Positions 1-50,427 of a DNA stretch of 64,000 nucleotides are shown piece by piece. Position 1 is the stretch's first letter. Each line of letters opens with the position of its first letter. Below the pieces are notes generated by a model. The model did no database searches. It was not told where the DNA came from and was given only the letters and a program-made list of their open reading frames with translations. Both the position numbers and the translations under genes were made by a program. This DNA comes from Opitutales bacterium. GTDB taxonomy: Bacteria; Verrucomicrobiota; Verrucomicrobiia; Opitutales; Seribacteraceae. Location: the NCBI GenBank assembly GCA_029252505.1, contig JAQXBH010000093.1:526-64525 (forward strand), in the 5' to 3' direction.

Positions 1-3000
1 TAAGGTCCAGGATCGCTTGGATTTTGCCCCCAAAGTATATCTGCTTCCATCTCTTGGCCATCAGATAACATGACCTTAGCCTTTTGGAATGAAGGAGGAA
101 CTTCACCACCACTAGAAGAACCGAAAAAATATCTCCCAGGTTCAATAATTTTCAATCCAACGACTTCGCCTTCAGAATCAACAATAGCCTCCGCTTTTGC
201 ATCTATCCCCGAACTGCCTGCTGGTTGAATTCCAACAGTAGGACGATTTGAATTTTCGACCTTAAATTTAAAAACATGATTGAGTGGCTTTTCGACTTGC
301 AACCAAACATCGTTCGCAACTAATTGACCACTGATTGTAGGTACATTCACATCACTTGGAGTAACAAGTGGAAGATCGCCAGAAAGACTCGGGATATTCA
401 GGTAGTTATTAAAATTATTTTTTTGGCACTGAAAATACTTTCCTTCATGATAAACAATTTGGCCATAATCGTAAGAAAGGTTAGGAGTCCAATCGTCTCC
501 TTGCTGAGCAGAGCGTGGACCGCTAAGCGTTGTTGAACTACCGACTTTACTAAAATATGCACCCTCTTGAAGTGAATAATCAGGCAAGGTTTGAGATGTC
601 CAATTCGATGCAAAATTAGCGACAGTATTATCAGCAGGAGAAATATCAGTGGCAGTAGTATAATATTTACCATCTTTGTAAGCGTGATCACCTGCGCTAA
701 ATGCAAAACCTTCCTTCCATGTTGTTGCCTCAGTCCAGTTGGTCCCAAAATTTCCCAAAGTATTACTCTCAGCTGTAATTGAGGAATTAGCAAAATAAAG
801 TAATCCGTTCGCAGTCGACATTTCACCAGAAGAAACTGGTACACCAGTTACCCAGGATGCGGGCTTGGTTATATCTTGCTTCGCAATATAAAAATCGTTG
901 TTATCTGGATCGTAAATGTAGTCACCAGACTTTGCCTCAAGCTGTCTAGTAGCCGAATAAATAGGTTCCTTACCTTCAGTAGGTAAAGTATCGCCTAATA
1001 AGAAAACATTCCCATCAGAGCGCTCAGTCAATCCGACAACATTTAATGAAGTACCGCTAAAGTGAGTAGCTTGTATATTTGCATCTGTTAAGGAAAATGA
1101 AAAATCTGACTTAACTGCAAAGTATTTGTTGTTTGCGGAGTCATGAACATACTGACCTTTCTTGAGCTTTACCTGCTCAGGACCGTACCCTACATCAAGT
1201 AAACCGGAAGGTAAAAATACGGAAACCGGATTGGTTGTCGTGCTAACATCTTTGAAGTACTTGTTATTCGCGGGGTTGGCAATCGAGGCGTCTTTAGTTG
1301 CTTCATTTTCAACTGTTGTGGATACATTCAACGCAGATGTACCGAAATTCAAACTTGCTAGTTGCGAGGCGCTAGGAGGATTCGGGGGAGTACCTAATTC
1401 TAGCCAATTGGTAGCAAAGTTGGACTCAGTATTGTTAACAGAAGAAGCGTTGTTAATGGCTTCGTATAATTTACCTTGGTAAGTTGTGGTATCACCTTGG
1501 GAAACCGCTTCACCAGTTTTCCATTCGCCAAGGTGCTTTGATTTTATTTCGTAATAAATACCTTTTGCGTTTGCATCTACTCCATCCCAAACCACATCTC
1601 CCACAGCATACTCTTTTTTAGGGTCAAAAGTACCCCTCATAGAATCAGATGCAACCATAACAGAAGTTCCTTCAGGCGAAATGAAATTACCAGCGAGAAA
1701 CGGAGAGGAATTAAACTTCTCAAGGCTGGCAGGATCCTTTGGCATTGTTGTTGCCGTTGCGGTAGCCTGAGAAAGTACTGAGTTAATGTCTGCAGCTGTT
1801 AAGGAAATTTTCTCATTAGCCAAGTAATATTTATTATTAGTATCATCATGAAGATACTGACCTGCATTAATATCAAAACTTGTTGCCGAAGAAAGTTTTA
1901 GCACCGGTCCGTTGTATGTATGAACATTTCCCTGCGGAGGGAAGCTTTCAACTATATGCTCTAAGTTGGAAGGGTCGACCTGGGTGGAGTCTTGGACCAA
2001 GAAATACCTTCCTTCATGCAAAATTACATCATTGTTTTGAAATTTACCCGTAGATGAAAAGACTTGGCCATTTTCTTTTACAAAACTTCCCTTGATTACA
2101 GAACCACCTTCGGCGGCAGCAACAAGTTTGTATTCTAAAGTTTCTGGATCAAAAAATACCGCTGAATCACTTTCAGATGAATTAATTGAAAATTCGTTTA
2201 CAGGAACTGCAATTCGTTTAACAACATTAGCTAAATCTGTGGCAAGAGCAGCACCTGGGTTGCTAGATTGCTGATATTCTTGAATCTTGCTGGCCACAAG
2301 AATCGATTGCGCATGTGCATTGGCACTTGTAACATCAGCAAATAACTTTCCATCGGGAGTTGAGTAATAAAAGCGATTAGTAGTTCCTGTAACCTCCAAG
2401 TTCCAGTCTTCTCTTGGAACATCGTAACCCGAACCAATTTCCGTCCAATAATCAGTTCCACTGTTTACAGGGGAATGATTTACATTATCCGAACCAATTG
2501 ACTCGAAAAATCTTCCTTCATGTTCAACAATATCTCCCTGTTTGTAAATCGTCAAACGCCTCCAATTCTCCGTGTGCTCGACAGCCAAATTTGATGCGCC
2601 ACTAACTTGGGCAGAAGTAACCGTTAGGTCCCTACTCCAATCACTTCCTTTTACGGAAGAATCAACAATTGCTTTTTCTGACTGAGTAAGTTCCGAATAT
2701 TTGACACCAGGAAACCTAGACGCAGTTTCTATGTTTAACTTTTCTTCCAGTTGCTCAGGGAAATAGTAATTGGGATTCCATTTCGTGGTGTAAGAAGAAG
2801 ATGCTTGATAAGATTCTCCAACACTTCCATGGATGAGTAAATTGCCGTTTGCTGCAATTTCAGCATTAAGAGAAGCTTTTGTGTTTCTGAAAGAATCTGA
2901 AGTTGTTGAACCTCTCACGAATGCCTTATACTCTGAGGTTTCATAGGAAAGAGAATCCGAAACTAACTCAGAATCGTTGTTAATCAGATCTTTCAATCGC

Positions 3001-3614
3001 AGGGCAATGTTGTCGGTGCTTAGGCCTTTGATTTTAGATTGAACCACATACTCTCGACCGTTTAACGAAAAATTGACCACTTCACCCTGATCGATTCTTC
3101 TTTTTCCGTCGTTACCAAGAGTGCCCACTTCATTAAAGGTAAAGGTCTTCTGTTCGCGTTTACCAAGCAATATTTCGGAGTTACCATAATCAGGTTTTAA
3201 CTTGGTTCCTCCAAAAAGTGCCTGTTTTCGATGTGTCGAGTTGACTCGATTAAGTGCTTCCTCGATTAACTGATTGAGCTCAAAACCATAGGTTTCCATT
3301 GCTGGGCCATTAAGACTCGAACCGGCAGTTCTGGCAATTTCTTGACCCCGTTGATTGAGTTCACGCAGTTTATCTAAATTTAGATAACCCGCATCCAAAT
3401 ATTCCTTAGCGTAGGAAGCATTCCTTTGGTATTGGGTTAATTGACCCTTTTGAGTCTCCATTTGGATGACACGACCTAAACGCATCCCGTCGTCTTCTGG
3501 TAAAGTCAGTTTTTGCCCACTTGTGATTTGTGCATCAAGCTTAAATCTTTGTTGATCAAGTTCTTTTATCTTTTGGATAATCGAATTACTTGAACTTATA
3601 TTGGGCAACCTCAT
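1..3614 (-). CDS. flgL: Giant flagellar hook-associated protein 3 (FlgL) with CBM5/12-like repeats; 3' end lies outside the window (>1204 aa)
   Basis: Not in the ORF track because there is no stop in the window. Hand translation from ATG 3614 gives MRLPNISSSNSIIQKIKELDQQRFKLDAQITSGQKLTLPEDDGMR...NSTHRKQALFGGTK (flagellin/FlgL N-domain motifs Q-x-x-SG-x-K-x3-P-x-DD and LFGG). The frame is open in every segment checked down to position 1. It starts 3 bp after the flgK stop. Confidence 0.88.
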   Translation of the reverse strand, partial: MRLPNISSSNSIIQKIKELDQQRFKLDAQITSGQKLTLPEDDGMRLGRVIQMETQKGQLTQYQRNASYAKEYLDAGYLNLDKLRELNQRGQEIARTAGSSLNGPAMETYGFELNQLIEEALNRVNSTHRKQALFGGTKLKPDYGNSEILLGKREQKTFTFNEVGTLGNDGKRRIDQGEVVNFSLNGREYVVQSKIKGLSTDNIALRLKDLINNDSELVSDSLSYETSEYKAFVRGSTTSDSFRNTKASLNAEIAANGNLLIHGSVGESYQASSSYTTKWNPNYYFPEQLEEKLNIETASRFPGVKYSELTQSEKAIVDSSVKGSDWSRDLTVTSAQVSGASNLAVEHTENWRRLTIYKQGDIVEHEGRFFESIGSDNVNHSPVNSGTDYWTEIGSGYDVPREDWNLEVTGTTNRFYYSTPDGKLFADVTSANAHAQSILVASKIQEYQQSSNPGAALATDLANVVKRIAVPVNEFSINSSESDSAVFFDPETLEYKLVAAAEGGSVIKGSFVKENGQVFSSTGKFQNNDVILHEGRYFLVQDSTQVDPSNLEHIVESFPPQGNVHTYNGPVLKLSSATSFDINAGQYLHDDTNNKYYLANEKISLTAADINSVLSQATATATTMPKDPASLEKFNSSPFLAGNFISPEGTSVMVASDSMRGTFDPKKEYAVGDVVWDGVDANAKGIYYEIKSKHLGEWKTGEAVSQGDTTTYQGKLYEAINNASSVNNTESNFATNWLELGTPPNPPSASQLASLNFGTSALNVSTTVENEATKDASIANPANNKYFKDVSTTTNPVSVFLPSGLLDVGYGPEQVKLKKGQYVHDSANNKYFAVKSDFSFSLTDANIQATHFSGTSLNVVGLTERSDGNVFLLGDTLPTEGKEPIYSATRQLEAKSGDYIYDPDNNDFYIAKQDITKPASWVTGVPVSSGEMSTANGLLYFANSSITAESNTLGNFGTNWTEATTWKEGFAFSAGDHAYKDGKYYTTATDISPADNTVANFASNWTSQTLPDYSLQEGAYFSKVGSSTTLSGPRSAQQGDDWTPNLSYDYGQIVYHEGKYFQCQKNNFNNYLNIPSLSGDLPLVTPSDVNVPTISGQLVANDVWLQVEKPLNHVFKFKVENSNRPTVGIQPAGSSGIDAKAEAIVDSEGEVVGLKIIEPGRYFFGSSSGGEVPPSFQKAKVMLSDGQEMEADILWGQNPSDPGP
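600..719 (-). repeat. 40-aa CBM5/12-like repeat in FlgL (WKEGFAFSAGDHAYKDGKYYTTATDISPADNTVANFASNW)
   Basis: Hand translation; same W-to-W spacing and NT-x-x-NF-x-x-NW ending as the copies at 735-854 and 1404-1523. Confidence 0.75.
735..854 (-). repeat. 40-aa CBM5/12-like repeat in FlgL (WVTGVPVSSGEMSTANGLLYFANSSITAESNTLGNFGTNW)
   Basis: Hand translation; tandem with the copy at 600-719. Confidence 0.7.
1404..1523 (-). repeat. 40-aa CBM5/12-like repeat in FlgL (WKTGEAVSQGDTTTYQGKLYEAINNASSVNNTESNFATNW)
   Basis: Hand translation; W-x8-GD-x3-Y-x-G-x-x-Y-x-A pattern. Confidence 0.75.
2445..2564 (-). repeat. 40-aa CBM5/12-like repeat in FlgL (WRRLTIYKQGDIVEHEGRFFESIGSDNVNHSPVNSGTDYW)
   Basis: Best match to the ChtBD3/CBM5/12 consensus W-x5-Y-x2-GD-x-V-x-(Y/H)-x-G-x2-(Y/F)...N...P...W. 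Confidence 0.78.
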
Positions 3615-3617
3615 AAA

Positions 3618-6600
3618 TTATTTTAAAAGACCCATTACAACAAGTTCGAGCATTTTGTCGAGCGTATTTAACACTCTAGAAGAGGCCTGGAACGACCGTT
3701 GAAATTGCATAAGGTCAGCAACTTCTTCATCAATTGATACTGAGCTAACTGAATTTCTTTGTTCTAGCAATAATGTTTCAATCGTATTTTGATGATCTAT
3801 ATTATCACTCAAGTCGGAAAGCGAATTGCCTATATCCGCGTTGATATCAGATATATCTTTTGCAAATTCGTTATTACCTAGCTCTGCAATAGCAAGCGCA
3901 ATTTCATTGGAACCCTGATCAAAATCCGCACTCGCAACAATGCTGTCAGCACTGAGATTATTATCAACAATGAGGGAGCTAGCCAAATTCCAACTATTTT
4001 CAAGAACTGTATCGAAAGAAAAATTATCTCCCAATAAAAACTCACTATCACCCTGCTCTAACCTAAAGGGCACATTTTCATAAGCAAGCATAACGGAACG
4101 TCCATCATCAGCGGTACCAATTAGTAAATCTGCACCCGCATAGGTGGAATCAGTTTCCATGGTAACATTTTGCATCTTCTTAGCACTTCCATAAAATGTG
4201 TAAAGCGATCCTGAACTTGAATCCTCTAACTGGATCTGCCCTTCGGTAGTGTCGCGAATAATATATCCAGTCCCTTCGAATTGTTCTCTTAATTCAACTG
4301 GAATCACTGGAGTCGTACTCGTTACAGTAAATGTGTCGTTTTCAGCGTAAGCAAGTGTCATTGAAACTTCATTCCTAAACAACTTCATCTCTCCGTTACC
4401 CTCAACTCCATATAAACCAAACTCTTCCTCCATAATCACATTTCGACCCATGGTAGGTCGGGTCAAATTTGCTTCAAAGCCAAACAGATATTCTCCTGGA
4501 GCGTCCTGAGGGTTATAGATTCCGTTCACTTGTGTTACAAATTTAGAAACCAAATCATTGAGAGAAACTCTGAAATCTTCCAGCTCAACCTGACGGGAGT
4601 GTTGATACCCGTGTAAGGAACCAGATTTTAAATCAATCTCCAATCCATTAACAAATAAGGCATCAGTCGAGGGCAAGTCTTTGGATTGTTGAAGAATGTG
4701 AAAACTCTTAATTTCTCCATCTTGAATAATGGCTTCGGCGACTCCGATATTGAGTTCCTGTAATGAACCATTGGAGATATTTAATCCGCCTGGGTTTGCT
4801 TTTCGTAGGACAGAAGTAACCGGAAGTCCAGAATCAGCATCAGGAGTAAAAATATGAAAATTATTTTTCCAATTAGCGTCGTTGGGATTAAATGTATTAA
4901 TTTCTGCATCACCAACGATGGGGTTTGGTTTTGCTTTGACCAAAAAATGAGTACTAGATGTCTCATCATAATAAATTCCACCCGAGTTAAAATTCATTTG
5001 AAGCTCGGTAGCCTCAACTCCATTTGTAACAATAGTTACATTTTCTGGCAAAGACTGAACAGTGGATATAGTATCATCAACAAAGGAGTTTACCTTGATA
5101 AAGTTAGCGGAGGAATGTGGTAGCTCAGTTGTTGCCGCTGATACATTTGAAACTGCCATATAAAAATCTCCACCCGTACCAGAAGGTGCATTCGGATCTA
5201 TAAATGAAATAACCGAACCTGCTGTAAGGTCGTTTCCATCAGGCCATGACATATTTAATTCTTCAGATTTCTTGGGTAGCGTTGCCCCAAGAGTGACGAT
5301 TCCAGATTGATCAACAGTACCCGCAGTAGTTACTAAGGAAGAAATCTCAGTAGCTCTGGGAATCGTTTTCGTTGCTTGGTAGTAATTATTCTCAAAGAGA
5401 AAAACTTCACCATTAGAATAGTTCCTTGAACTGAGAGTAGCGTTAGTCAAAGGATCGACGACACCAACTTCATTCGATACTGGACCAACCCCGGTAGTTG
5501 CTTGATAGACTTTGCCCTCGTAATAAATCTGTTTACCCTTAGGGATAAAATCAACATCGGAAAAAGTTCTCTTGGTCTCAATTACAATCCCATTGGGTGG
5601 ATTTGAAATAGCCAAAAACCTCGATTCGTCTGTTAGCAAATCTCCCTTTTGTGTATCGACTAAAGCTTGATAGTAACTCTCCCCTTCATAAAAAACTTCT
5701 CCAATCTTTCGAGCAGCAGAAGAAGGATCAACTGGTATAGTACTCGCAATATCGCCCCCCGCCTGAGCGGCAATCTCATTGCCCGCGTCAACTGCTTGGT
5801 TTGCCATTTGAATAGCTGCGACCTGTTCATTTGCTGCGGCATTTTCCTCCTGATTAACCAGATCTGCTTTTTCTTGTACAACAAGAGGTTCGTTTGGCTT
5901 CGGAGGCAACAGACTCACTAAGAAAGGACCATCAGAATCGTTGTACTTAGAACCGCCCTTTAGAACTTCAAGTCTGCCTAACTGTCCATTGGAATCAATT
6001 TTGGCACGGACAACCGCTGCTGTACCGGCAGCATCCTGAGGACCCGCAATTGTAAACTCCTGCCCCCATTGATTAGTAAGAGACTTTGAACCTTTAGAAT
6101 CTAAAATATTAATCTTTTCATCATTTTTTCCTTCGATGAAAAGGTTTACAAAACCAGAGGGTTTACCAGTAGTCGCGGAAACATCATCTTCTTGAGTAAA
6201 ATTAATGTAACTTCCCAATTCCTCAAATAACTTTTGTCTTTGGTCCCGGTAGGAAACTGCTTTTCCTTGATCAAGGAGCTCAAAACGCCGAACTTGGGTA
6301 TTTGCTTCGTGGATTTGACCTAATAAAATATTAATTTTTTCAGTTGATCTTGTAATCACTTCTGAAACATCCTCTTCAATCTGCTCAAGGCTTTGCCCAG
6401 CCTCATTAAAGCGCTTGGTTAAGGTTTCAATCTTATGATAAAGTTCTTGTTTGATAGTCGGTTCATAAGGAGAAGCCGAAAGTTCCTGGAAGGTGTTAAA
6501 AAAATCGTTTAACGCACGGGTTAAACTACCGGGGGCTAAATCGCTGTCATGCAAATCATCCAGTCCAACATTAACTCCTTGACGATTAATTTTCTCTCCC

Positions 6601-6902
6601 AATGCAGCCTGTAACAATTGCAAAATTTCCTGCTGTGCAGCCAATGATTCGGAGTCCCCTTTTTCGTTAATAACCCGGGCATCTAAGATTTGATTCCTGG
6701 CATGATCGACTCCACCAGTCTCTAATCCGGATGAAAGCAGACCCCCAAACGAAGTATGCATGACTCCTTCTCGAGCCAAGACCCTTTGTCGTGCATAATT
6801 TTCGTCATTAACATGAGCTAAATTTTGACCCGCTACTTCTGCTGTTCTTGCATGATAGCGAAGAGCTTCCGAGCTTTTGCTTATTTCTCCAAGTAATCCC
6901 AC
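3618..6902 (-). CDS. flgK: Enlarged flagellar hook-associated protein 1 (FlgK), 1094 aa
   Basis: N-terminal GQNLAHVNDENYARQRV and C-terminal SVSSVSIDEEVADLMQFQRSFQASSRVLNTLDKML are FlgK motifs; lies between flgN and flgL. Confidence 0.93.
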   Translation of the reverse strand: MGLLGEISKSSEALRYHARTAEVAGQNLAHVNDENYARQRVLAREGVMHTSFGGLLSSGLETGGVDHARNQILDARVINEKGDSESLAAQQEILQLLQAALGEKINRQGVNVGLDDLHDSDLAPGSLTRALNDFFNTFQELSASPYEPTIKQELYHKIETLTKRFNEAGQSLEQIEEDVSEVITRSTEKINILLGQIHEANTQVRRFELLDQGKAVSYRDQRQKLFEELGSYINFTQEDDVSATTGKPSGFVNLFIEGKNDEKINILDSKGSKSLTNQWGQEFTIAGPQDAAGTAAVVRAKIDSNGQLGRLEVLKGGSKYNDSDGPFLVSLLPPKPNEPLVVQEKADLVNQEENAAANEQVAAIQMANQAVDAGNEIAAQAGGDIASTIPVDPSSAARKIGEVFYEGESYYQALVDTQKGDLLTDESRFLAISNPPNGIVIETKRTFSDVDFIPKGKQIYYEGKVYQATTGVGPVSNEVGVVDPLTNATLSSRNYSNGEVFLFENNYYQATKTIPRATEISSLVTTAGTVDQSGIVTLGATLPKKSEELNMSWPDGNDLTAGSVISFIDPNAPSGTGGDFYMAVSNVSAATTELPHSSANFIKVNSFVDDTISTVQSLPENVTIVTNGVEATELQMNFNSGGIYYDETSSTHFLVKAKPNPIVGDAEINTFNPNDANWKNNFHIFTPDADSGLPVTSVLRKANPGGLNISNGSLQELNIGVAEAIIQDGEIKSFHILQQSKDLPSTDALFVNGLEIDLKSGSLHGYQHSRQVELEDFRVSLNDLVSKFVTQVNGIYNPQDAPGEYLFGFEANLTRPTMGRNVIMEEEFGLYGVEGNGEMKLFRNEVSMTLAYAENDTFTVTSTTPVIPVELREQFEGTGYIIRDTTEGQIQLEDSSSGSLYTFYGSAKKMQNVTMETDSTYAGADLLIGTADDGRSVMLAYENVPFRLEQGDSEFLLGDNFSFDTVLENSWNLASSLIVDNNLSADSIVASADFDQGSNEIALAIAELGNNEFAKDISDINADIGNSLSDLSDNIDHQNTIETLLLEQRNSVSSVSIDEEVADLMQFQRSFQASSRVLNTLDKMLELVVMGLLK

Positions 6903-40141: not shown

Positions 40142-43100
40142 TTATTCATAGCGATGCCATTTCTTTAAACTGTAGTGGTAAATTGCAGAAGGTACATCAC
40201 CTTGTTTCCTTCTGAAAAACAACCAGTCCGAAATTAAAGAGTTGTATAAATAGCCCTCCCCCTTATCAGCGTCCCAATTTTCTGTATTAGTCCAAGACCA
40301 TCCCCATCTTTCGGTCCAAAACCAGATATTATCGGTTTGAGAATTAGCGACTAAATAAATCCATAGAAAATCTTCATGATAAGTCCATGAATTATCAAAT
40401 GTATTAAAATAACCTAGCCAATTGGTTTTCCAATCCCCCAAATTAGTCTCGGTTGCTTCTTGAGACATTTTAGTCTGAACAGTTAAAGAATATTCAAGAG
40501 TTTCTTGATAACTAAAGTTTTGATCGATGAACTGGTCCGCAAATATTTGAATCGGAAAAGTTCCAGTGTCCCTTTCTAATGGAGTTCCTTCGACAACAAA
40601 TCGATTCTTGGATATGCGGTTTAATCGTAACCATTTCGGAAAACCTTCGGGTATTAATAAGATATTATCAAACGATGAACCAGTAAGTAGGAATTCGGAT
40701 CGATATAGCTTAAACTGAACTCCGCTTGAAACTGGGTTTCCAAGAATGGAGAAAGCACTTCCATTCACTAGAATCTTAACTTTCCATTGAGCAGTAAGTC
40801 CTGGAAGGTCGGTCGAATTGATATCAAACCTCACCGTTTCATCAGGACTAATTGTAGTTGGACTTTTCCCCCAAACTAAACCACTGCCATCCGAAAAGAG
40901 GTCTATATTTAACCAATTCGGCTTTTGCACATTATTGAGTGTTAACTCGGTTCCACTCGGCCAAGGTCCAGAATTGAATTCATAACGGTACATACTGGAT
41001 GTAGGGATACTTGTTTTGGGCGCAGGAGAAAGAATGGGAGTAAACTGTTTGGGTCCCCATAGTGCTATATACGCATTAAAAGATCCGTTATTTGCAGTGG
41101 ATAAGGATCCACTTGAATCCATTATTCCTGAAGTGATTCCTGTAGTCAGTTTATGCCCTGGAAATGAACTGGTAATAGATTTCATTAAGTCATCTCCTGC
41201 CCCTCCAATCTGCACGGCATCAATTACGCTGGTACCCTCTTGGTTAAGCTTTGCTAAAAAAGAATCTTTCTTACCGGATGTTGAAAATATTTTTTCGCCT
41301 AATTTGATGTCATTGGAGAAAGAACCAACAAAATATGTGTGAATCGAATTTTTGTGAATTGAGTCAATTGAATCATTTCCAGTACCCCCGTAGGCATTGA
41401 AGGAAATACAATTTCCTTTATCAGTAAGAACAGCAATAAAACCATCCTGCTTTCCGTTACTTTCCACTTTTCGATTTCCCCAACTCATAGAGTTTCGAAA
41501 ATTTCCAGCAATCACTAATCGGTTTTCTTGTTCAAGATAGAGGCCATTAACCTTATCTGCCCCTTCTCCGCCACCGGAGTAAATATTTTGCCAAATTCCC
41601 TTATTATTAAGTTCTGCGACAAAGCAATCGGACAGACCAAGTGATTGATGGGTAATATCTCCAAAAGAAGATATTCCTTGATAAGATCCAGCGAGGAAAA
41701 TTTTTCCCATTGATGAAATAGCAAGAGCATCGACCCTGTCGTCTTCAATTCCTCCAAAACTTTGTAACCAAGAAGCAGAAGAGATATCAATCGAGGGGAC
41801 TTCTAAAATAAAGCCGTCTTCTCCTCCCTTGGAATTAACCGTGTACATACCGTGGGAAAAAGTTCCGTCGAATTGTCCTGTCAAAAAAAGACTATTTTGA
41901 TAAAAGCAAGCGTCCTGAAAGTACTCATTGGAAGAACTTCCAATTGAGCTAAGATTTTTCAAAGATCCATCTTCTGACCATTCAACCACATATAAGTCAT
42001 GACCACCTGAAGACTGAATACTAAATGGGCCAATTTGAAGATCTCCGCTAAAGTCCCCAATGATATAAATTTCGCCATCGAGTCCAAGAATCGTTGACCC
42101 TACAGATAAATCACCTGAACTTATCAATTGCACCGAACGGTCTATGGTTCCACTCAAAGAAAGCTTTGCTACGAAACCATTTGTCTGACCTTGGCTGCGA
42201 AGGATAGTTTGTCCTAAATTCACTGATTGAGAAAAGGTTCCACCAATCAAGTAGTTTCCATCTGATGAAGGGGCAGTAGAAGAAATATTGACTTCTTTTC
42301 CAAAATTAAGTGCAGAAGAAAAAGATGCTAATTTTGGATTAGAAATTATTACTTGGGGATTACTTGTAACAGAGTAATTAAAATCTAAATCAGAAATACC
42401 CCCATCTCCATTGTATGCACGAACCTTTATATTTCCCGTACTGGAAATTGTATTGGATGGAACACCACCAAGCATACCAGTACCATTTAGGTTATCTTGA
42501 AAGCTCATCCAAGGAGGAGATTTAATTAACTCCATCCGAACAAATGGTTGATTGAGAACTCTAATTTCCTGATGAAAGAAAGTATTTTCCTGGAGATTCA
42601 AATTAGAAAAAGGAGCAAAAGCCGGTTTCCCCAGAATAGACTCAAGTTGTACCAAAAATTGATTTCCCACAGAATATGAAAATTCGTTCAAGTTAAAAGG
42701 CGTTGAGAGAGAAGTCCCTAATAAGATTGTTCCAAACGGACCGATTTGAAACTCTGTGGCGAAATCATTCGCCACTGTGCTGATTGGTTCATTCCAAATA
42801 ATTGCTCCAGTAATAGGATCTAGTTTAACAAGCATCAAATCATTCAATCCTAACGATTCATGAATGAGCGAACTACTAGGAACCGACAAATTCCCATCGT
42901 AATTTAAAACAACAATCGGATAACCAAATCGATCTGCTTGGACTTCCTGTACTGTAGTACTTCCAGTGGAAGAAAAGGATTTCATCCAATTTAATTCGAG
43001 AGCAGAATCAAAGGATAAAGTAAACCCACTCGAAGGGGAGCCGGAAGAAATTGCCATAGAATCGATGATTAACTGGGTTTCAAATTGCCCAACAACCAAT

Positions 43101-46100
43101 ATTGAATCATTTATACACTCAAGTCCGGTCGACTGATTAAAGTTCACATTTGGGAAGGATTTCCCTCCAGTCACGACTCCGTCTTTGTTGAATTTAACTA
43201 AAGTAGAATAGGAGGGAGAGTTTTCTTTCACTGAGTTGCTTACTGCAACAAAAGACCCATTTGATAATTCTCCCATCCCGACCATTTCCTCTGTTCCTTC
43301 TCCTCCATAAGTCTTGAGCCATATCAACTCTCCGGTATCTGTTAATTTCATGGCGAAATTATCGCTCTCACCCTGTGCATTCCAGTTTTGAGAATTGAGT
43401 TTAAGTTGTTCTCGAAAGTTTCCAGCAATTTGAATGGATTGATCCATCATCTCCATTTGTTCTAAGTTGGACAAGGTAGAAGAGCAGGAAATAGTCTTTA
43501 ACCAAACATGTTGGAAATTATTATCTAGTCTCGCAATAAAAGCATTATGATTTCCTTTTGCTGAAACTAAATTCTTACCAAATTCTAAATTCCCCCGAAA
43601 CACGCCACATACCGAAAAACCTCCATCTTTCAGCTCTAAAACTTGTTCAATCGAAATTTTCTGTGCTTTAAATCTTAGTGTATGAATTGGATTGGAGAGC
43701 TCTACATGATTCTCATATTTTGATACTATTGCTTCCGACTCAGACGATGAACCAAGTAAAAACGATCCGTTTTTTAAAACTGAAAAAGTATCAAGTCCTA
43801 CCGGGACAATTGAAGTAATATTCGATATACGAACGCTGTCATTTCGATCCACAACTTGAATAGTTCTTTTCAATTCCGAGAAATTCCCTGATGAATCTGC
43901 CGACCGGTAAGTAATTTGATAAATACCCTTTTGACTCATATCGACACTACCATTTATATCCACACTGTCATTTAAATCACTTCCGTCTTGAGCAGTGGAA
44001 AGATAACCCGGTTCAGAAAATATCTGCCCCACGCTTAATTGAATAAATTGATCTCCTTTAAGAATGAGTTGGGGAGGAGAAATATTTAAAACTTTCAAAC
44101 TATACTCTTTTAGAGCTTTCCGTTCATTATTTTCCAAAAAGGAGAGTTTGATTGCAAAGTCTCCGGTAACATTCTCTGGAACCATACCCTCTAACTTAAA
44201 TAAATCATAAGCCACTTTTTTGACTTTTAACCATGGCGGGCCTTGCAATATTATTGCCTGAGTAACCGAGTTGCGGGTCAGATTAGATATCTTAAAATGA
44301 TCAGTGATGCTAAGCCCTGCCGTTGTAGAAGTGATCGTGGGTTCAGTAACATCAAATGAATCGAAGTTTTCGACGACAATGGCAATAATTTCAATTTCAT
44401 CAAAACTTACTCCATCGGATACCCTTATTCCAAAGCGATCCTTTTGCGCAGAAGAATATGGAAGGTATTTAATCAGAGGGTTTGAAGTTCCATCTCCTGA
44501 TACAGATACCGTACCAAAGGAGGGTAAAGAATTGGGAGAAAGACTCCATACAAGATTTTCTCCCTCGGTATCGCTTGCATATAATCGAGCGATGTCAGAA
44601 GGATGTGCCTGACCAGTACTATCGAAACGAATGGTGATGATCGAACTTGGATTAATTACCGGGCTTATATTCTTTCCATCCACAATAAGTTGACAATTGA
44701 GCACAGAAAATAGACCTGTATCATCGGTAACAACAAAGGCAAGTTGATAACGATCACCACTACTTTGAGAAGGGGCAACACCAAATAAGCGAGCGCTCCC
44801 ACTGCTACTATTTTGGTCCCCCAGTTTGAGCCATGATTCCCCCCCTGATGGTAGTCCAAAAACCTTGATAGTCCGAGGACTGTTATCAGGGTCAGCAGTT
44901 GAAATATCCAAGCTGAACTGAGCTCCTTCTTTTGCGACTAATACAGATTCAAACGATGTGGTAAAAGTGGGTGCATCAGGAAGAGCTCTTACTTTTACCC
45001 GTACAGGAAGGATTGAACTTCGATTACCATCGCTCACTTTGAGCTTTATGATGTCGTCTCCAAAAAAATTCTCCCGAGGGGAATAAGAAAATAAATAAGG
45101 TCGTTGCCTGTCAATTTCACCGGAATTGGGAGAATCCTGAACTACTACGCTCGCCCCACTTTTAGGATTTTCTGCCAATGTCCAAGTCAGGGGGATTGCT
45201 GATGGCTTTGTCGGATCAGGGTCTTCAGCGATATAGTCTGATGGGGCAACCCATCCGCCCCGGGCACTACTTAGATTAGAGTCCTCATCAACATATACAA
45301 GTAATTCAGAAATTGTTTTGTTCGATTCGCTGACTGACTTAAAAACTGGCGGATAATTATCGATTCTGATTTCCAGCGTGAAGTTCTGTATCGTTGAAGT
45401 TTGATTAGAATCAAAAACTTCAAAAGAAATAGTATAATTTCCTTCCTCTTGAACTGTGGCTAATCCATAAAGAAGTCCGGTACCATTTCCCTCATCTTTA
45501 AAGGTTAACCATTCCGGTAGATTTCCACTGACATTGAGATCAATGGAATGCCATTCATAATTCCAGTCTGCGTCATAGGTATTGACGTTGTAAACATAGA
45601 CTGATTCATCATTCCAACTGTAAGATGGGGTGGAAATAAAAACCGGAGGGTCGTTGACAGGAGATACCTCCACATTTACTACAATCGTATCATATTTAGA
45701 AGGTGATCCCTCAATCCCTCCCCCATCGGTTACCTTAACTGTAAAGGAATCTGAGCCAGAAAAATTTCCGTCAGGAGAATAATCAAAAGTAGCCGGACTG
45801 GATCCATTTCCAGATATTATAACGGTTCCATGGCTAGGATGTGAAAAAACAGACCAAACCAAATTAGATGAGGGAGTTTCCATATCGATTCCCACTAAAA
45901 CAGGTGCAATCCAAGTAGAGTTCTGATCTTCAACCATAGTAACCGAAACGGAAGCCAAACCTGAATTGATAATCGGGGCATAATTAAGAACGCGTACCTG
46001 AACGTCGAACTCAGCGGAATTATATAAACCTGTTGAATCGGTAATACGTATAGAAAAGGATGAATTGCCTTCGTCGCTTTCTCCTGGAACTCCTTCCAGT

Positions 46101-49100
46101 AGAATAACACCATTAGAACGATCAAAAGAGGAAACTCCGAGCCATGATGGTCCAGTCAATTGAATTTCGCTTCCAACTAGACTATCTGCATCATACACCT
46201 TTGGAGAAATGGTAAAATTTTGGTTATCGATCGTAATCTGATCGGTGGGAAGAATCGAAAAAACGGGAGCATCATCAACATTTTGAATATTCAAATTAAT
46301 AGTAATTAAATCACTTCCGATTCCATCGCTCACTTCAACCTGAAAGGAATCAAAACCTGAAAAATTAGAATCAGGAGTATAGTCTAAAACAGGAGGCGAT
46401 GAACCCTGACCAGAAACCTGAGCACTTCCATTGGATGGGCTTGATTTAAGAGTCCAATTTAAGAATTGTCCGTCTATATCGGTTGCTGAAATGAGCGAAC
46501 TTCCATTCCAAGTCAGGTCCTCGGTATGAACAAAGGTCGTAGTTTCACCCTGAGCGATGACCGGATTGTTATTTTCGTCTAATACAACAAGCATAAAAGC
46601 CTGAACAGCAAATCGATTGGTTTGGTCACGAACTTCCAGCACGATTAAATTATTGCCAAGATCGTATTGATTAGGTGAGCCGCTCAATCGTGCCGAACCA
46701 TTACCGAAATCACTTAAGTTTAACCAACCAGGCAGTGGGACAAGGGAAGAAATTGTCACATTTGCGCCAAGATCTGCATCGAAAGTTGTAATATTATAGT
46801 CAAAAAGGAAATCCTGAATGGCCACGCCTGAGGTCGAACTCTTAAAAACCGGATCATCCTCAACTGGCAAAACATTTAAATTAATTCGAATTACATCCGA
46901 AGCATTTGGGTCCAAAGATTCAAAAACTTGTACTAAAAAGTAATCTGTTCCCGAAAAATTACCATCAGGTTGATAGCTCAGGGAAGAGGGTGTGGTTCCG
47001 GTTCCTGTGACCGATGCAATTCCATTTTGAGCCTGCTGCGAAATTACCCAAGTCAAAGTACCCAAGGTCTGGTCTAATCCTGTAACGGATAAATCAAGAC
47101 CACTCCATGTATTGATAATTGAATCCTCATTCAGGGAAGTTGAAAAAGTGGCCCCTTGTGATATTACAGGGGGATAGTTATTTGGGATCACTTGAAGAGT
47201 AAAAGCTTGAGTATCCTCCAACCCGGCTTGATCCACCACCTTAATCACGATCAACCTCGGTCCCACTTCCTCATAGTCCGACCAAGATGGCGTACCCGAT
47301 AATATCTGAGTCGTAGAATTGTATTCTAACCATCCGTTGGAAGGAAGGTTTTCAACCGTCACATTGAGCAACTCTGTACTTCCCACATCGTTAAGGTCTG
47401 GGTCCAATAACACCAGTGGGTAATGAAACATACTACCTTCATTTACGTCAGTGAAGGCAGGCACGGACGAAATTTCAGGTGGGTCATTAACCGGAGAAAT
47501 AACCAAGTTAAAAGTTAATAGAGTAGATTTATTACCCTCCCCATCAATATCCCTTAGGATCATAGTAAAGGAATCGGTTCCATTAAAATGAGGCACAAGA
47601 GGAGTGTAGGAAATACTTCTGTTCAAATCGGTTGCATTAATGTCCCAAGTAAGATTTCCGTGGGTTGGATAAACTGTGACATTTAGATCAACTCGATGAC
47701 CGTCTGAGTCATTGTAGTCTAAAAGTGGTAAAGAGGCATACCATGAAGTCTCATTAAAATCCTCACTTAAAATAATATCTGGTAAAACTGATAGATTAGA
47801 ATCTCCATTCACCCAAATTTGTGGAGGGTTATTGCGCTTGAGAATCTGAAGATTGAATGATTTTTGGACAATATCAGTCCCGTCATTAAGCGACAGAGTT
47901 ACATTGTAATCCTGATATGCTTGTCCATTGGCACTTCCTCCGCCCGGAATGCCAGCAATAGTAAAGCCGGTAAGACCTAAACCCACTAAAGTGGAGTTAT
48001 AACTTAATGATAGGTTGTCACCATCAGCATCAAAAACTGAGATAGTTTGATTATAATCATCTCCCTCCATGCCAGACGGAATAGAACTGGTAATAAATAT
48101 TGGCGCATCCTGAACCGGGGTGACGGTTACATTAAAATCAACGATATCGAAGTAATTCTCATTTGAAAGAGTCGCTCGAAATGAATGAATTCCACTAAAA
48201 TTCCCATCCGGAGTATAAGAAAACATTCCAGTGGTAGAATTTAAATCAAAAGTTGCATTGCCATCTGGATGTAGGAAGAGAGACCAAATCAAATCTGAAT
48301 CAAATGGGTGTGAACCGTTGAAGTCATATTGATAGATTCCACTATCTTCGGCGATGGTATGATTGATCGATGCATTATAATCAATAATCGGAGCCAAATC
48401 AGGTAAAACCTTCATTTGCCAGGCATCATTATGAAACGCTAAAGCACCTCCCCCGACATCTGCAAAAGTACTATCCCCAGGAATTCCAACTATCGCGGTT
48501 CCATTTTTCAACGCGATAGAAAGAAAACCCTGATCCGTGGAATTGGATTCATCAAGACTAAGGCTCGAAATCAATGAAATATTCGAACCATTACTTTCCA
48601 CACGATATAAATGTACATATCCCTCACCCTGACTGGGTGATGAGACAGCAAGAATGTCCGTGTTTACTTTCAAGTCGGAAGAAAAAAACTGATTGGATTG
48701 ATCTTGGGGTGGATAAATTATTGAAACTTGTTCCCAATTCAGGCCATTAAGATGAAAAATGTAAACCGCACCCGCATTAGTTCCATTTCCATCTTTTTGC
48801 CTCGCTCCCACGAAGGCTAGATTATTTGCGAGGGATACTGAATAACCGAACTCATCGCCAGCAGATAAGCCAATCGGAGATAACTTTGCAGTTTGAAACC
48901 ATCCCGATGCATTTTGCTCAAAAATGTAGGCTGCACCCGAATCAGTACCATTCGCGTCCGCTTTCGGTGCACCTACAAGTAGGCGAGGGCCAGAAAGGTT
49001 TAATGAGTAGCCAAATTCGTCATTACTTTGATTGTCGTCTGCACGCAAAACAGTATCAATCCCCCAATTCGTACCATTATTTTCAAAAATTGAGATTTTA

Positions 49101-49993
49101 CCTCCACCATTATTGATTGATTGAAGTGAGCTAACTGCCAAATAATTGTCAGCGGCCGAAATATCCCAACCAAAACTGTCCAAATTCTCCCCAACAGTAT
49201 TTAGACTTTCCGTAAATCCATAACTTCCATTTGATTCACGAGTAAAAATATCAACTAAACCGGAGGAGGTCGAACTATCAGGGGAACTCACAAAAAGAAA
49301 TTGGTTTTCTACTTCCATTGCATGGCCAAATTGACCATTTTGTCCAGAGACAGAAGGAATTATTTTTTCAAGGTAAGAGTAACTCCCATTTACTTCCTTG
49401 TTGAAAACATGGATTGCACCGTCATGTGATATTGTCTCTCCCGGAGAACCGATAATAGTTTGGTTCCAATCGTTAATCACAACGGATTGACCAAACTTTA
49501 AAGAAGTTTCATTTACTTGGGGATGAAAAAATTGTGAATCATGAGGAGAAATATTAATTTGACCAACTGAAGCATTATCTTCGGGATTGAAGTAGTAAAG
49601 AACGCGGGAAGAATTTAATTCAGGCGAGAACAATGAATATTCGTCATCGCTATGGGACCCATTGTTCCAAATATCGAAGCCTTGGTATTGTGTATTGTTA
49701 TCTTCACCAATAGATAAGCGGACAGCGATTGTGCTGTTATTGTTAAAAACATAATAATTGTTTTCGTATAGTGATAAAGTAGGAAAAGAAGAATGTAACA
49801 ACCCATCCCCACTCAGTAAGAAGTCGGTACCATTCCAGTCCACCGAGAATGCCTGACTCATATTACCATCTTGGTTATTGGAAAATCCTCTGAGCGAAGT
49901 CAAAAAAAGCAAAAACAGACAAACCAGCAACCCTTTACAAAAAGCAAGGATGCAATTACTCAAACGAGTAAATATAGGTAAGCGCACGAGCAT
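40142..49993 (-). CDS. Giant secreted/surface protein (~3280 aa): FG-GAP propeller, tandem cadherin/Ig-like domains, DUF5011-like domain, two SBBP-like propeller regions, Trp-rich C-terminal domain
   Basis: Signal peptide; DEFGYS...LVGAP...GAAYIF repeats; VNDPP/YTPDGNFSG/LSGTP repeats; PPQLILKGD; GGEG/GGAGDD propeller repeats. AGGAGG SD at 50003-50008 favours ATG 49993. Confidence 0.9.
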   Translation of the reverse strand: MLVRLPIFTRLSNCILAFCKGLLVCLFLLFLTSLRGFSNNQDGNMSQAFSVDWNGTDFLLSGDGLLHSSFPTLSLYENNYYVFNNNSTIAVRLSIGEDNNTQYQGFDIWNNGSHSDDEYSLFSPELNSSRVLYYFNPEDNASVGQINISPHDSQFFHPQVNETSLKFGQSVVINDWNQTIIGSPGETISHDGAIHVFNKEVNGSYSYLEKIIPSVSGQNGQFGHAMEVENQFLFVSSPDSSTSSGLVDIFTRESNGSYGFTESLNTVGENLDSFGWDISAADNYLAVSSLQSINNGGGKISIFENNGTNWGIDTVLRADDNQSNDEFGYSLNLSGPRLLVGAPKADANGTDSGAAYIFEQNASGWFQTAKLSPIGLSAGDEFGYSVSLANNLAFVGARQKDGNGTNAGAVYIFHLNGLNWEQVSIIYPPQDQSNQFFSSDLKVNTDILAVSSPSQGEGYVHLYRVESNGSNISLISSLSLDESNSTDQGFLSIALKNGTAIVGIPGDSTFADVGGGALAFHNDAWQMKVLPDLAPIIDYNASINHTIAEDSGIYQYDFNGSHPFDSDLIWSLFLHPDGNATFDLNSTTGMFSYTPDGNFSGIHSFRATLSNENYFDIVDFNVTVTPVQDAPIFITSSIPSGMEGDDYNQTISVFDADGDNLSLSYNSTLVGLGLTGFTIAGIPGGGSANGQAYQDYNVTLSLNDGTDIVQKSFNLQILKRNNPPQIWVNGDSNLSVLPDIILSEDFNETSWYASLPLLDYNDSDGHRVDLNVTVYPTHGNLTWDINATDLNRSISYTPLVPHFNGTDSFTMILRDIDGEGNKSTLLTFNLVISPVNDPPEISSVPAFTDVNEGSMFHYPLVLLDPDLNDVGSTELLNVTVENLPSNGWLEYNSTTQILSGTPSWSDYEEVGPRLIVIKVVDQAGLEDTQAFTLQVIPNNYPPVISQGATFSTSLNEDSIINTWSGLDLSVTGLDQTLGTLTWVISQQAQNGIASVTGTGTTPSSLSYQPDGNFSGTDYFLVQVFESLDPNASDVIRINLNVLPVEDDPVFKSSTSGVAIQDFLFDYNITTFDADLGANVTISSLVPLPGWLNLSDFGNGSARLSGSPNQYDLGNNLIVLEVRDQTNRFAVQAFMLVVLDENNNPVIAQGETTTFVHTEDLTWNGSSLISATDIDGQFLNWTLKSSPSNGSAQVSGQGSSPPVLDYTPDSNFSGFDSFQVEVSDGIGSDLITINLNIQNVDDAPVFSILPTDQITIDNQNFTISPKVYDADSLVGSEIQLTGPSWLGVSSFDRSNGVILLEGVPGESDEGNSSFSIRITDSTGLYNSAEFDVQVRVLNYAPIINSGLASVSVTMVEDQNSTWIAPVLVGIDMETPSSNLVWSVFSHPSHGTVIISGNGSSPATFDYSPDGNFSGSDSFTVKVTDGGGIEGSPSKYDTIVVNVEVSPVNDPPVFISTPSYSWNDESVYVYNVNTYDADWNYEWHSIDLNVSGNLPEWLTFKDEGNGTGLLYGLATVQEEGNYTISFEVFDSNQTSTIQNFTLEIRIDNYPPVFKSVSESNKTISELLVYVDEDSNLSSARGGWVAPSDYIAEDPDPTKPSAIPLTWTLAENPKSGASVVVQDSPNSGEIDRQRPYLFSYSPRENFFGDDIIKLKVSDGNRSSILPVRVKVRALPDAPTFTTSFESVLVAKEGAQFSLDISTADPDNSPRTIKVFGLPSGGESWLKLGDQNSSSGSARLFGVAPSQSSGDRYQLAFVVTDDTGLFSVLNCQLIVDGKNISPVINPSSIITIRFDSTGQAHPSDIARLYASDTEGENLVWSLSPNSLPSFGTVSVSGDGTSNPLIKYLPYSSAQKDRFGIRVSDGVSFDEIEIIAIVVENFDSFDVTEPTITSTTAGLSITDHFKISNLTRNSVTQAIILQGPPWLKVKKVAYDLFKLEGMVPENVTGDFAIKLSFLENNERKALKEYSLKVLNISPPQLILKGDQFIQLSVGQIFSEPGYLSTAQDGSDLNDSVDINGSVDMSQKGIYQITYRSADSSGNFSELKRTIQVVDRNDSVRISNITSIVPVGLDTFSVLKNGSFLLGSSSESEAIVSKYENHVELSNPIHTLRFKAQKISIEQVLELKDGGFSVCGVFRGNLEFGKNLVSAKGNHNAFIARLDNNFQHVWLKTISCSSTLSNLEQMEMMDQSIQIAGNFREQLKLNSQNWNAQGESDNFAMKLTDTGELIWLKTYGGEGTEEMVGMGELSNGSFVAVSNSVKENSPSYSTLVKFNKDGVVTGGKSFPNVNFNQSTGLECINDSILVVGQFETQLIIDSMAISSGSPSSGFTLSFDSALELNWMKSFSSTGSTTVQEVQADRFGYPIVVLNYDGNLSVPSSSLIHESLGLNDLMLVKLDPITGAIIWNEPISTVANDFATEFQIGPFGTILLGTSLSTPFNLNEFSYSVGNQFLVQLESILGKPAFAPFSNLNLQENTFFHQEIRVLNQPFVRMELIKSPPWMSFQDNLNGTGMLGGVPSNTISSTGNIKVRAYNGDGGISDLDFNYSVTSNPQVIISNPKLASFSSALNFGKEVNISSTAPSSDGNYLIGGTFSQSVNLGQTILRSQGQTNGFVAKLSLSGTIDRSVQLISSGDLSVGSTILGLDGEIYIIGDFSGDLQIGPFSIQSSGGHDLYVVEWSEDGSLKNLSSIGSSSNEYFQDACFYQNSLFLTGQFDGTFSHGMYTVNSKGGEDGFILEVPSIDISSASWLQSFGGIEDDRVDALAISSMGKIFLAGSYQGISSFGDITHQSLGLSDCFVAELNNKGIWQNIYSGGGEGADKVNGLYLEQENRLVIAGNFRNSMSWGNRKVESNGKQDGFIAVLTDKGNCISFNAYGGTGNDSIDSIHKNSIHTYFVGSFSNDIKLGEKIFSTSGKKDSFLAKLNQEGTSVIDAVQIGGAGDDLMKSITSSFPGHKLTTGITSGIMDSSGSLSTANNGSFNAYIALWGPKQFTPILSPAPKTSIPTSSMYRYEFNSGPWPSGTELTLNNVQKPNWLNIDLFSDGSGLVWGKSPTTISPDETVRFDINSTDLPGLTAQWKVKILVNGSAFSILGNPVSSGVQFKLYRSEFLLTGSSFDNILLIPEGFPKWLRLNRISKNRFVVEGTPLERDTGTFPIQIFADQFIDQNFSYQETLEYSLTVQTKMSQEATETNLGDWKTNWLGYFNTFDNSWTYHEDFLWIYLVANSQTDNIWFWTERWGWSWTNTENWDADKGEGYLYNSLISDWLFFRRKQGDVPSAIYHYSLKKWHRYE

Positions 49994-50076
49994 TAACAAT
50001 AACCTCCTAAATATAAGCTAGTATTGCAAAGCTTTTAGGGAAATTTTTTACCCGAGTACAATCGGGGAGATCATAC

Positions 50077-50427
50077 TCAAGACCTCTTCGGTGCTCGTCT
50101 TACGAAAGGGACTATTTTGGATGAAGGCACACGTTGTACAAGTGGAGTACTTCTGACTGGCTTAGGTCGTTTGACTAAAGGCGTGCGCTTGACACGCTTT
50201 GGATATCTTGCAGTAGGTGAACGAGGAGCACTTGGCGACTTACGGGCAATTCGAGCGGAGGACACAAAAGGAGCACGCTTGGGAAAACCAAAGCTTGGAA
50301 CCGAACGAACTTTACTAACAGAGGGGGCTCGAGGAGCAGAAGGTGCTTGTCGAAAACCGAAAACAGAAAATGTGAGCAGGAAAAATCCTGTTAAGTATGA
50401 TAGATAAAATAATCTGTTAGGAAACAC
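50077..50427 (-). CDS. Small secreted Pro/Arg/Ser-rich polycationic protein
   Basis: Signal-peptide-like N-terminus, then R-x-P repeats with no Asp/Glu; GTG start overlaps the stop of the upstream peptidase gene. Confidence 0.55.
   Translation of the reverse strand: MFPNRLFYLSYLTGFFLLTFSVFGFRQAPSAPRAPSVSKVRSVPSFGFPKRAPFVSSARIARKSPSAPRSPTARYPKRVKRTPLVKRPKPVRSTPLVQRVPSSKIVPFVRRAPKRS

Follow-up and report, generated by a model that had tools for sequence, protein, structure and literature searches.

The 64,000-nucleotide stretch of DNA analysed here, which we call the window, comes from an Opitutales bacterium and covers positions 526–64,525 of the forward strand of contig JAQXBH010000093.1 (assembly GCA_029252505.1). 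The host is uncultured and marine, with the GTDB lineage Bacteria; Verrucomicrobiota; Verrucomicrobiia; Opitutales; Seribacteraceae. Its metagenome-assembled genome (MAG; G000) comprises 3.1 Mb in 291 contigs and is 87% complete. The window carries the gene of a giant, adhesin-like surface protein that is rich in extended sequons (D/E-X-N-X-S/T), a plain sequon being N-X-S/T and X never Pro. Judging from sequence comparisons, we consider it likely that these extended sequons are selected acceptor sites of a PglB-type, single-subunit oligosaccharyltransferase (OST) distributed family-wide, and that the protein reaches the surface by Sec export.

The giant protein combines tandem Big_9 and cadherin-like immunoglobulin (Ig)-like repeats with a secreted chain of thousands of residues (Table 1). 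By Pfam, its FG-GAP_2 repeats span residues 180–420 approximately, and the Ig-like run recognised by Pfam and NCBIfam starts at about residue 540 and ends at about 1980, the strongest matches being NF012211 (E 2e-54, 6 stretches) and PF17963 (E 1e-43). The ATG start that an earlier note on this DNA had placed at 49993 is present, and a TTG lies further upstream. The N-terminus is probably a Sec signal peptide or an anchor, as its residue pattern suggests. Orthologues of 3230–3550 amino acids (aa) occur in 36 of 43 congeneric genomes, with 33–88% identity over the first 1000 residues, and the giant gene is thus no strain-specific oddity.

Table 1. Features of the window discussed in the text (positions are those of the window).
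Feature	Positions	Strand	Size or residues	Evidence and sequons
Giant exported protein gene	40142..49999	-	3285 aa	stop 40142-40144; candidate starts TTG 49999, ATG 49993
N-terminal segment	49865..49999	-	first 45 residues	basic then hydrophobic stretch (hydrophobicity classifier); no sequons
FG-GAP repeat region	48410..49864	-	residues 46-530	FG-GAP_2 E 1e-30; 23 N-X-S/T, 15 extended, 3.1 per 100 aa
Tandem Ig-like region	44060..48409	-	residues 531-1980	Big_9, He_PIG, Cadherin_4/5, 'tandem-95'; 50 N-X-S/T, 30 extended
Bact_surface_Ig-like domain	43850..44059	-	residues 1981-2050	PF16403 E 7e-19; 2 extended
Beta-propeller-like repeats	41000..43849	-	residues 2051-3000	weak DUF5122 match; 13 N-X-S/T, 4 extended, 0.4 per 100 aa
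C-terminal Trp-rich domain	40145..40429	-	~95 aa	blastp within genome; no sequons
FlgK	3618..6902	-	1094 aa	TIGR02492 E 3e-44; 3 extended of 14 sequons; negative control
FlgL	3..3614, running off window	-	1379 aa in full contig	TIGR02550 E 2e-18; 1 extended of 18 sequons; negative control
Gene beside giant gene	50417-51610	-	397 aa	no NCBIfam match
Gene beside giant gene	51683-52408	-	241 aa	no NCBIfam match
Gene beside giant gene	52520-53413	+	297 aa	no NCBIfam match

An exact count gives 92 N-X-S/T sites in the giant protein, of which 53 are extended and 39 lack an acidic residue at –2, in close agreement with the earlier note's hand count of about 53 and 40; all 13 pentapeptides listed there as examples are present. 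Shuffling the residues of the protein 2000 times yielded 46.6 ± 5.8 N-X-S/T sites (maximum 67) and 5.0 ± 2.2 extended sequons (maximum 14). With Asp and Glu at 11.3% of residues, the binomial p for 53 of 92 is 9e-27, which bears out the strong enrichment claimed for a protein of low acidic content. Non-sequon Asn residues served as an internal control: an acidic residue stands at –2 in 9% of them (15/165), compared with 59% of sequon Asn. The 53 extended sequons comprise 49 distinct pentapeptides, in which –1 takes 16 different residues and +1 takes 17, so that the high count is not due to copied repeats. The extended sequons concentrate towards the N-terminus. Residues 1–1642 hold 43 of them and residues 1–1750 hold 45, close to the 45 or so that had been assigned to the N-terminal half, and 45 fall within the FG-GAP and Ig-like regions (residues 46–1980) at a density of 2.1–3.1 per 100 aa.

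The same bias runs through the exported proteome of the host. Open reading frames (ORFs) were called and sorted into export classes by crude heuristics of our own, which rely on N-terminal and internal hydrophobic segments. In cytoplasmic-like proteins with complete 5' ends, –2 is acidic at 271 of 2362 sequons (11.5%), against a background of 11.6% (odds ratio, OR, 0.99). In signal-peptide-like proteins the proportion is 22.8% (529/2325; OR 2.25, p 1.5e-43), and it reaches 38% (OR 4.2) in those longer than 1000 aa. Polytopic membrane proteins (20.8%, OR 2.4) and 5'-truncated fragments of giant genes at contig ends (33%, OR 3.9) are biased as well. The comparison of exported and cytoplasmic proteins proposed in the earlier note has thus come out as predicted, with ORs of 2.25–4.2 and 0.99. 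FlgK and FlgL leave the cell via the flagellar channel and bypass the periplasm; both are encoded in the window and contain few extended sequons (Table 1), the earlier estimate for FlgK having been about 3 of 12. At –2 the frequency of Asp and Glu is 0.27, compared with 0.09–0.12 at the other positions from –6 to +6, and the profile is flat in cytoplasmic proteins. The spike at –2 depends on Ser or Thr at +2. Within the sequons of the proteome, Thr is preferred over Ser and Asp over Glu, and with plain sequons taken as the neutral pool the genome holds an excess of about 560 extended sequons.

One exported protein departs from this pattern. A subtilase of 3220 aa (G000:C247:593–10255), with two S8 domains and five Big_9 domains, has an acidic –2 residue at only 5 of 50 sequons. 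As this protein carries Big_9 domains, the domain fold alone does not create the motif. Contamination was considered as a cause of the exemption and rejected; the GC content and tetranucleotide profile of the contig are typical of the genome.

Conservation across orthologues singles out the same three positions. We aligned the first 1000 residues of the giant protein with those of eleven orthologues; these genomes are related to one another and not independent, so that p-values of about 1e-18 are overstated while the effect size is unaffected. The seven orthologues at 54–67% identity retain 26–28 of 31 extended sequons as complete D/E-X-N-X-S/T and just 2–5 of 14 plain sites. Between G000 and its closest congener, G089, 30 of the 31 extended sequons are identical. 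Among the ten orthologues at 44–67% identity, conservation is 83% at each of –2 (as D/E), 0 (Asn) and +2 (as S/T), whereas it is 57% at –1 and 62% at +1, close to the overall identity of 55.6%. Asn is kept at 39% in plain sequons and at 53% outside sequons. A comb at –2, 0 and +2 is what an enzyme reading those positions would be expected to leave, and a structural turn would not produce it.

A suitable enzyme is widespread in the family. Using PF02516 and PF21436 matches above the curated cut-offs, we identified a PglB-like OST of 1040–1125 aa in 57 of 75 family genomes, including 23 of the 26 of high quality and all five genera. In the host's own genus it is present in 19 of 24 sampled genomes, and at least one 'negative' genome has a contig that ends within the gene and retains its C-terminal half. 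The OST of the relative G006 (L008:7566–10709) matches PF02516 with E 8.5e-20 and PF21436 with E 5.2e-23. Among 301 genomes drawn evenly from the order Opitutales, strong matches were confined to the host family. Weak PF02516 matches in G204 and G114, which belong to other families of the order, were rejected as N-OSTs and are without WWDxG. The sole WWD-x-G ORF of the host's own genome (C98, 447 aa) was not accepted as an OST either, a rejection with no family search behind it; its motif resembles one of the Gfo/Idh/MocA type.

At the level of sequence, the family enzyme has each feature that defines a PglB-type OST. Among Protein Data Bank (PDB) entries, the OST profile matched only the PglB proteins of C. 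lari and C. jejuni (E 1.6e-60). The motif T-W-W-D-Y-G-S-G is present in all eight full-length OSTs examined, which represent four genera, and is invariant in the alignment. Residues corresponding to C. lari D56, R147, D154/D156, E319 (TIxE), I323, V327, R331 and I572 are invariant or conserved. The catalytic acidic residues lie in T-H-D-S-F, Y-Y-D-T-D-M and T-I-R-E, which align to D56, D154/D156 and E319 and are invariant. The external loop 5 (EL5) stretch alone aligns weakly (independent E-value 79), yet its motif matches residue for residue: an invariant Arg (R434 in G006 numbering) aligns to R331, and I323, E326, V327 and I332 are also identical. In PglB, R331 forms a salt bridge with the –2 Asp and, together with hydrophobic neighbours, correlates with a strict 'minus two rule' (PMC4894442, PMC12229607). 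The MI-type motif reads P-Y-E-I-L-R-I in the family and P-Y-R-M-L-R-I in PglB, with I572 invariant and M569 replaced by Ile. An AlphaFold2 model built from the eight-sequence alignment (mean predicted local distance difference test score, pLDDT, 54; predicted template modelling score, pTM, 0.39) did not reach the quality that a fold search needs; by helix pattern and alignment with PglB, the enzyme is compatible with a GT-C fold of 13 transmembrane helices.

A quick, unrooted tree search placed the family OSTs in one monophyletic group (Shimodaira–Hasegawa-like approximate likelihood ratio test, SH-aLRT, 100) on a long branch, apart from the PglB proteins of Campylobacterota. Other PglB-like OSTs with WWDYG or WWDWG, 26–29% identical to the Opitutales enzyme (L133, L135, L152, L153, L156, L142), were found in MAGs labelled Pirellulales, Akkermansia muciniphila, Verrucomicrobiota (eastern tropical North Pacific, ETNP), Parcubacteria, Phycisphaerae and Acidobacteria; they form long branches and their placement is unsure.

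Enzyme and sequon bias co-occur across relatives, as judged from fetched stretches that represent parts of each genome. In 400 kb of the OST-bearing G006, exported proteins give an OR of 4.2 (p 3e-26) and cytoplasmic proteins one of 1.07. Two OST-bearing genomes from other genera, G063 and G057, yield ORs of 4.0 and 10.5. In G091, which represents another genus and also carries the enzyme, the pooled exported OR of 1.71 is not significant (p 0.075); here one 1699-aa protein that was binned as cytoplasmic-like has 28 of 44 sites extended. Of the genomes of the order without an OST, G204 gives an OR of 1.09 (400 kb) and G035 one of 0.59 (300 kb), and five giant Big_9 proteins (2258–4047 aa) from the OST-less G040 and G035 have an acidic –2 at 14 of 114 sequons (12.3%), compared with 14.0% at other Asn. 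Because OST-bearing genera with a GC content of 50–52% show the bias, base composition is not its cause. Single proteins of these relatives can be more extreme than the giant protein of the window: a 3928-aa protein of G057 (C8:19854–31640; L186–L187) has 90 extended sequons among 142 sites. A 1260-aa protein of G006 (C43:64665–68447; L040) has 40 among 48.

The OST gene is embedded in a fixed arrangement. In G006 the gene order is an FAD/NAD-binding oxidoreductase (FAD_binding_1), a TonB-dependent receptor, fur, def, a 761-aa gene, a 568-aa gene and the OST. The two genes that precede the OST on the same strand (L008:10792–14746 in G006, and likewise in L007) are specific to the family; they occur in this order at all 44 family loci with enough upstream sequence (44/44 among L077–L132 and L144), and the OSTs of other lineages have no such neighbours. 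The first encodes a protein of 761–808 aa that has a single hydrophobic segment near its N-terminus and five towards its C-terminus, the second an N-terminally anchored protein of 568–573 aa. Pfam and NCBIfam gave no match for either, and protein-atlas matches are limited to hypothetical clusters of Verrucomicrobiota. Both are possible partners of the OST. A bolder and rather doubtful extension is that the OST, the polytopic 761-aa protein and the anchored 568-aa protein might form a three-protein membrane module, a bacterial counterpart of the multi-subunit OST, which would produce the densest bacterial N-glycoproteome yet inferred, with hundreds of selected extended sequons and 50–90 of them on individual giant fibre proteins, and a glycocalyx-like coat on giant surface proteins. 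The 568-aa protein gave a trypsin-like match below threshold. Downstream of the OST, a large FecR-domain protein (1458 aa, L008:3069–7445 in G006) follows on the same strand in 42 of 57 family loci.

Taken together, we hypothesise the following mechanism. The OST would be a GT-C protein of the inner membrane whose catalytic site faces the periplasm, and would move a pre-assembled glycan en bloc from undecaprenyl-pyrophosphate to the sequon Asn of unfolded or loop-exposed chains in the periplasm. The Ser or Thr at +2 would be read by WWDYG together with the counterpart of the PglB 'MI' motif, here Ile-x-x-Ile, and the Asp or Glu at –2 by the conserved Arg equivalent to R331 of C. lari PglB. The giant protein could receive up to about 50 glycans, concentrated on its N-terminal 1750 residues with the FG-GAP and Ig-like domains. 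This part would project away from the C-terminal anchor, while the propeller-like proximal part would be glycosylated little and the shared C-terminal domain not at all. Across the exported proteome, the roughly 560 sites above neutral expectation would be glycosylated. We infer that the sites are occupied, and by a glycan of this pre-assembled, lipid-linked kind; the glycan might shield the protein against proteases, phages or grazers, or keep a very long fibre soluble. The general N-glycosylation system put forward in the earlier note is supported by the bias of exported proteins, the conservation comb and the family OST, whereas an OST in the host's own genome and the occupancy of the sites are predictions.

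Several points weigh against this interpretation. The search for an STT3/PglB homologue with WWDxG, likewise suggested earlier, was successful in the family, where the motif is WWDYG, but found no STT3 homologue or fragment in the host's own 3.1-Mb assembly (PF02516, six-frame WWDxG scan and tblastn with eight congeneric enzymes). The whole locus is likewise missing from G089, the nearest congener (86% complete, with a giant protein 88% identical to that of the host), so that a loss of the enzyme in the sub-lineage of these two genomes keeps a small probability. No recognisable glycan-assembly genes (PglA/C/H/I/J, PglDEF, PglK) stand beside the OST in G006 and G024, where its neighbours are two membrane proteins, def, fur, a TonB-dependent receptor and a FecR-domain protein. 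The escape of the C247 subtilase from the bias is unexplained and may reflect another export route or selection against glycosylation. Moreover, R331 alone is no guarantee of a strict –2 rule (PMC4894442). Finally, the evidence from the sequons is statistical and does not bear on their occupancy, and glycosylation as such is predicted.

If the enzyme has indeed been lost, the sequons would be relics of an ancestor that glycosylated the protein, and the protein would be unglycosylated today in the host species and in G089. It is in keeping with such a loss that the OST and the two partner genes upstream of it are absent from both assemblies, even as fragments, but the end of the host's contig C108 points elsewhere. 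This contig carries the reductase, the TonB-dependent receptor and a truncated fur, and then stops. An exact-word scan of metagenome contigs found ERZ1048068 NODE_17983 (L157). Over the final 1949 bp of C108 the two contigs agree at 99.74% identity; L157 then carries on through fur and def into the 761-aa gene, of which it holds the first 160 codons, and gene order and strand are as in relatives. As C108 ends in fur and L157 enters the first gene of the trio, the gap is a break of the assembly at the locus boundary. The 761-aa gene is intact for those 160 codons directly after def, at all 44 related loci with enough upstream sequence it is followed by the 568-aa gene and the OST, and both MAGs are just 86–87% complete. 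Nor do the sequons show the decay that a loss would entail, neither in G089 nor in the orthologues at 54–67% identity. We therefore give the relic explanation little credence, and infer that the OST gene lies in an unassembled stretch of the host's genome. A second contig of the MAG, C133, resembles C108 in carrying a TonB-dependent receptor followed by fur, and both stop inside fur. These contig ends and the gap in G089 suggest that, in this sub-lineage, assembly or binning of the sequence beyond fur is systematically difficult.

Alternatively, the sites could be selected for some other periplasmic process, such as a different modification of Asn, a chaperone or a sorting receptor, with the STT3 homologue acting on a few dedicated targets or on a non-protein acceptor. 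The link between enzyme and sites is indeed one of co-occurrence only, and the OST is about 50% longer than PglB and belongs to a fixed module together with two membrane proteins, not to a glycan locus. Against this, the selected motif is the exact acceptor of the closest characterised enzymes, whose residues for reading +2 and –2 are conserved in the OST. A search for cytoplasmic N-glycosyltransferases of the GT41/HMW1C type found none, and such an enzyme would explain neither the –2 rule nor the restriction to exported proteins. To this alternative we attach very little weight. It is highly implausible that the motif is a structural feature (a Ca-binding site or Asx-turn of FG-GAP, cadherin-like or Big_9 domains) or a by-product of composition, unrelated to glycosylation: although the giant protein is rich in Asn, Ser, Thr and Asp and some sites lie in family-typical motifs (D-x-N-G-T/S before the 'AYIF' strand of FG-GAP, P-D-G-N-F-S-G in Big_9), the shuffles and the non-sequon Asn control exclude the compositional route named in the earlier note, and the spike restricted to –2, the free –1 and +1 positions, the varied pentapeptides and the lack of bias in cytoplasmic proteins, FlgK/FlgL, the C247 subtilase and OST-less Big_9 giants exclude its Ca-binding DxN route.

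A PglB-type system as we propose it shares its logic with the pgl system of Campylobacter. The PglB proteins of C. jejuni and C. lari (PDB 3RCE, 5OGL, 6GXC) and the family enzyme have WWDYG, D56, D154/D156, E319, R331 and I572 in common, and both systems combine the acceptor D/E-X-N-X-S/T with a preference for Asp over Glu and Thr over Ser and with exported targets. There are also clear differences. Identity between the enzymes is 27–29%, and the family enzyme measures 1040–1125 aa compared with 713–724 aa for PglB; the stretch between its aligned transmembrane blocks has 219 residues instead of 126, and about 190 residues are added at the C-terminus. The family OST belongs to the phylum Verrucomicrobiota and is found in a fixed trio, not in a pgl-type glycan locus. 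Whereas Campylobacter glycoproteins carry only few N-glycan sites each, the Opitutales substrates have tens of sites per protein (53 in the giant protein, 90 in the G057 protein), a sequon load far above that of Campylobacter for single proteins and for the proteome alike. In Campylobacter, the glycan attached to Asn is a bacillosamine-based heptasaccharide.

Outside the Planctomycetes–Verrucomicrobia–Chlamydiae (PVC) group, the nearest relatives of the enzyme in the genome collection are the PglBs of the deep-sea-vent Campylobacterota Nitratiruptor, Sulfurovum and Sulfurimonas. They share a near-identical EL5 motif, T-[IV]-R-E-A-x-x-I-P-x-E-V-V-x-N-R-I, but form a separate, well-supported clade in the unrooted tree, in which the Opitutales OSTs are monophyletic.

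HMW1 of Haemophilus influenzae is likewise a large adhesin, N-glycosylated at many N-X-S/T Asn residues. Its enzyme HMW1C is a cytoplasmic GT41 protein that adds single hexoses and follows no –2 rule. The giant protein resembles HMW1 as a large adhesin with many sequons and differs in the restriction of the bias to exported proteins and in that no GT41 enzyme was found. With archaeal AglB the Opitutales system would share the dense N-glycosylation of large surface proteins, which is predicted here, by an enzyme of the STT3 family. AglB uses plain N-X-S/T and has a DK-type motif, whereas the family OST matches only PglB among solved structures.

The Desulfovibrio enzymes DgPglB and DmPglB are, like the Opitutales enzyme, single-subunit bacterial OSTs outside Campylobacterota. 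They recognise a relaxed sequon and tolerate or prefer a non-acidic –2 residue (PMC4894442, PMC12229607). In contrast, the Opitutales proteome records a strong preference for an acidic –2, and I323 and V327 are kept in the family OST. Characterised PglB-type N-glycosylation in bacteria is essentially that of Campylobacterota (epsilon), with a few homologues from Desulfobacterota (delta) and Aquificae (PMC4894442). Our literature search found no paper that ties PglB, oligosaccharyltransferase or N-glycosylation to Verrucomicrobiota or Opitutales. The data point to protein N-glycosylation of unusual density, by a system not yet described, in bacteria that are common in the ocean.

Reading the specificity of an OST from the proteome provides rare, direct evidence, from sequence alone, for active and selected N-glycosylation in an uncultured lineage. 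These bacteria matter ecologically: their relatives are marine MAGs and single-cell genomes from the surface ocean (Opitutales, Opitutia, Puniceicoccaceae), among them Candidatus Chordibacter forsetii, and Candidatus Chordibacter has been described as a degrader of sulfated glycans. If our interpretation is correct, these bacteria would offer a natural system of Ig-like and FG-GAP domains that bear glycans at dozens of positions. Glyco-engineering would gain a new clade of OSTs that obey a strict –2 rule, and the family would serve as a test case for how acquiring an OST reshapes surface proteins.

The host's genome encodes four initiating transferases of the Bac_transf family, none of them tied to the OST. 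One of PglC size (C212:9173–10545; L170) stands beside a glycosyltransferase of the WecG/TagA family, with the contig end upstream and housekeeping genes on the other side. This pair is a candidate for the start of a lipid-linked glycan pathway; no glycan locus is assignable.

The Trp-rich domain at the C-terminus of the giant protein has no family match. Within the host's genome it recurs in at least 14 other proteins, mostly at the C-terminus (blastp E 1e-11 to 5e-4), and it is a candidate sorting or cell-surface anchoring signal of the lineage. Carriers include the products of C223:2–3904, C243:3779–6751 and C86:1273–9651, and many are large, exported and sequon-rich.

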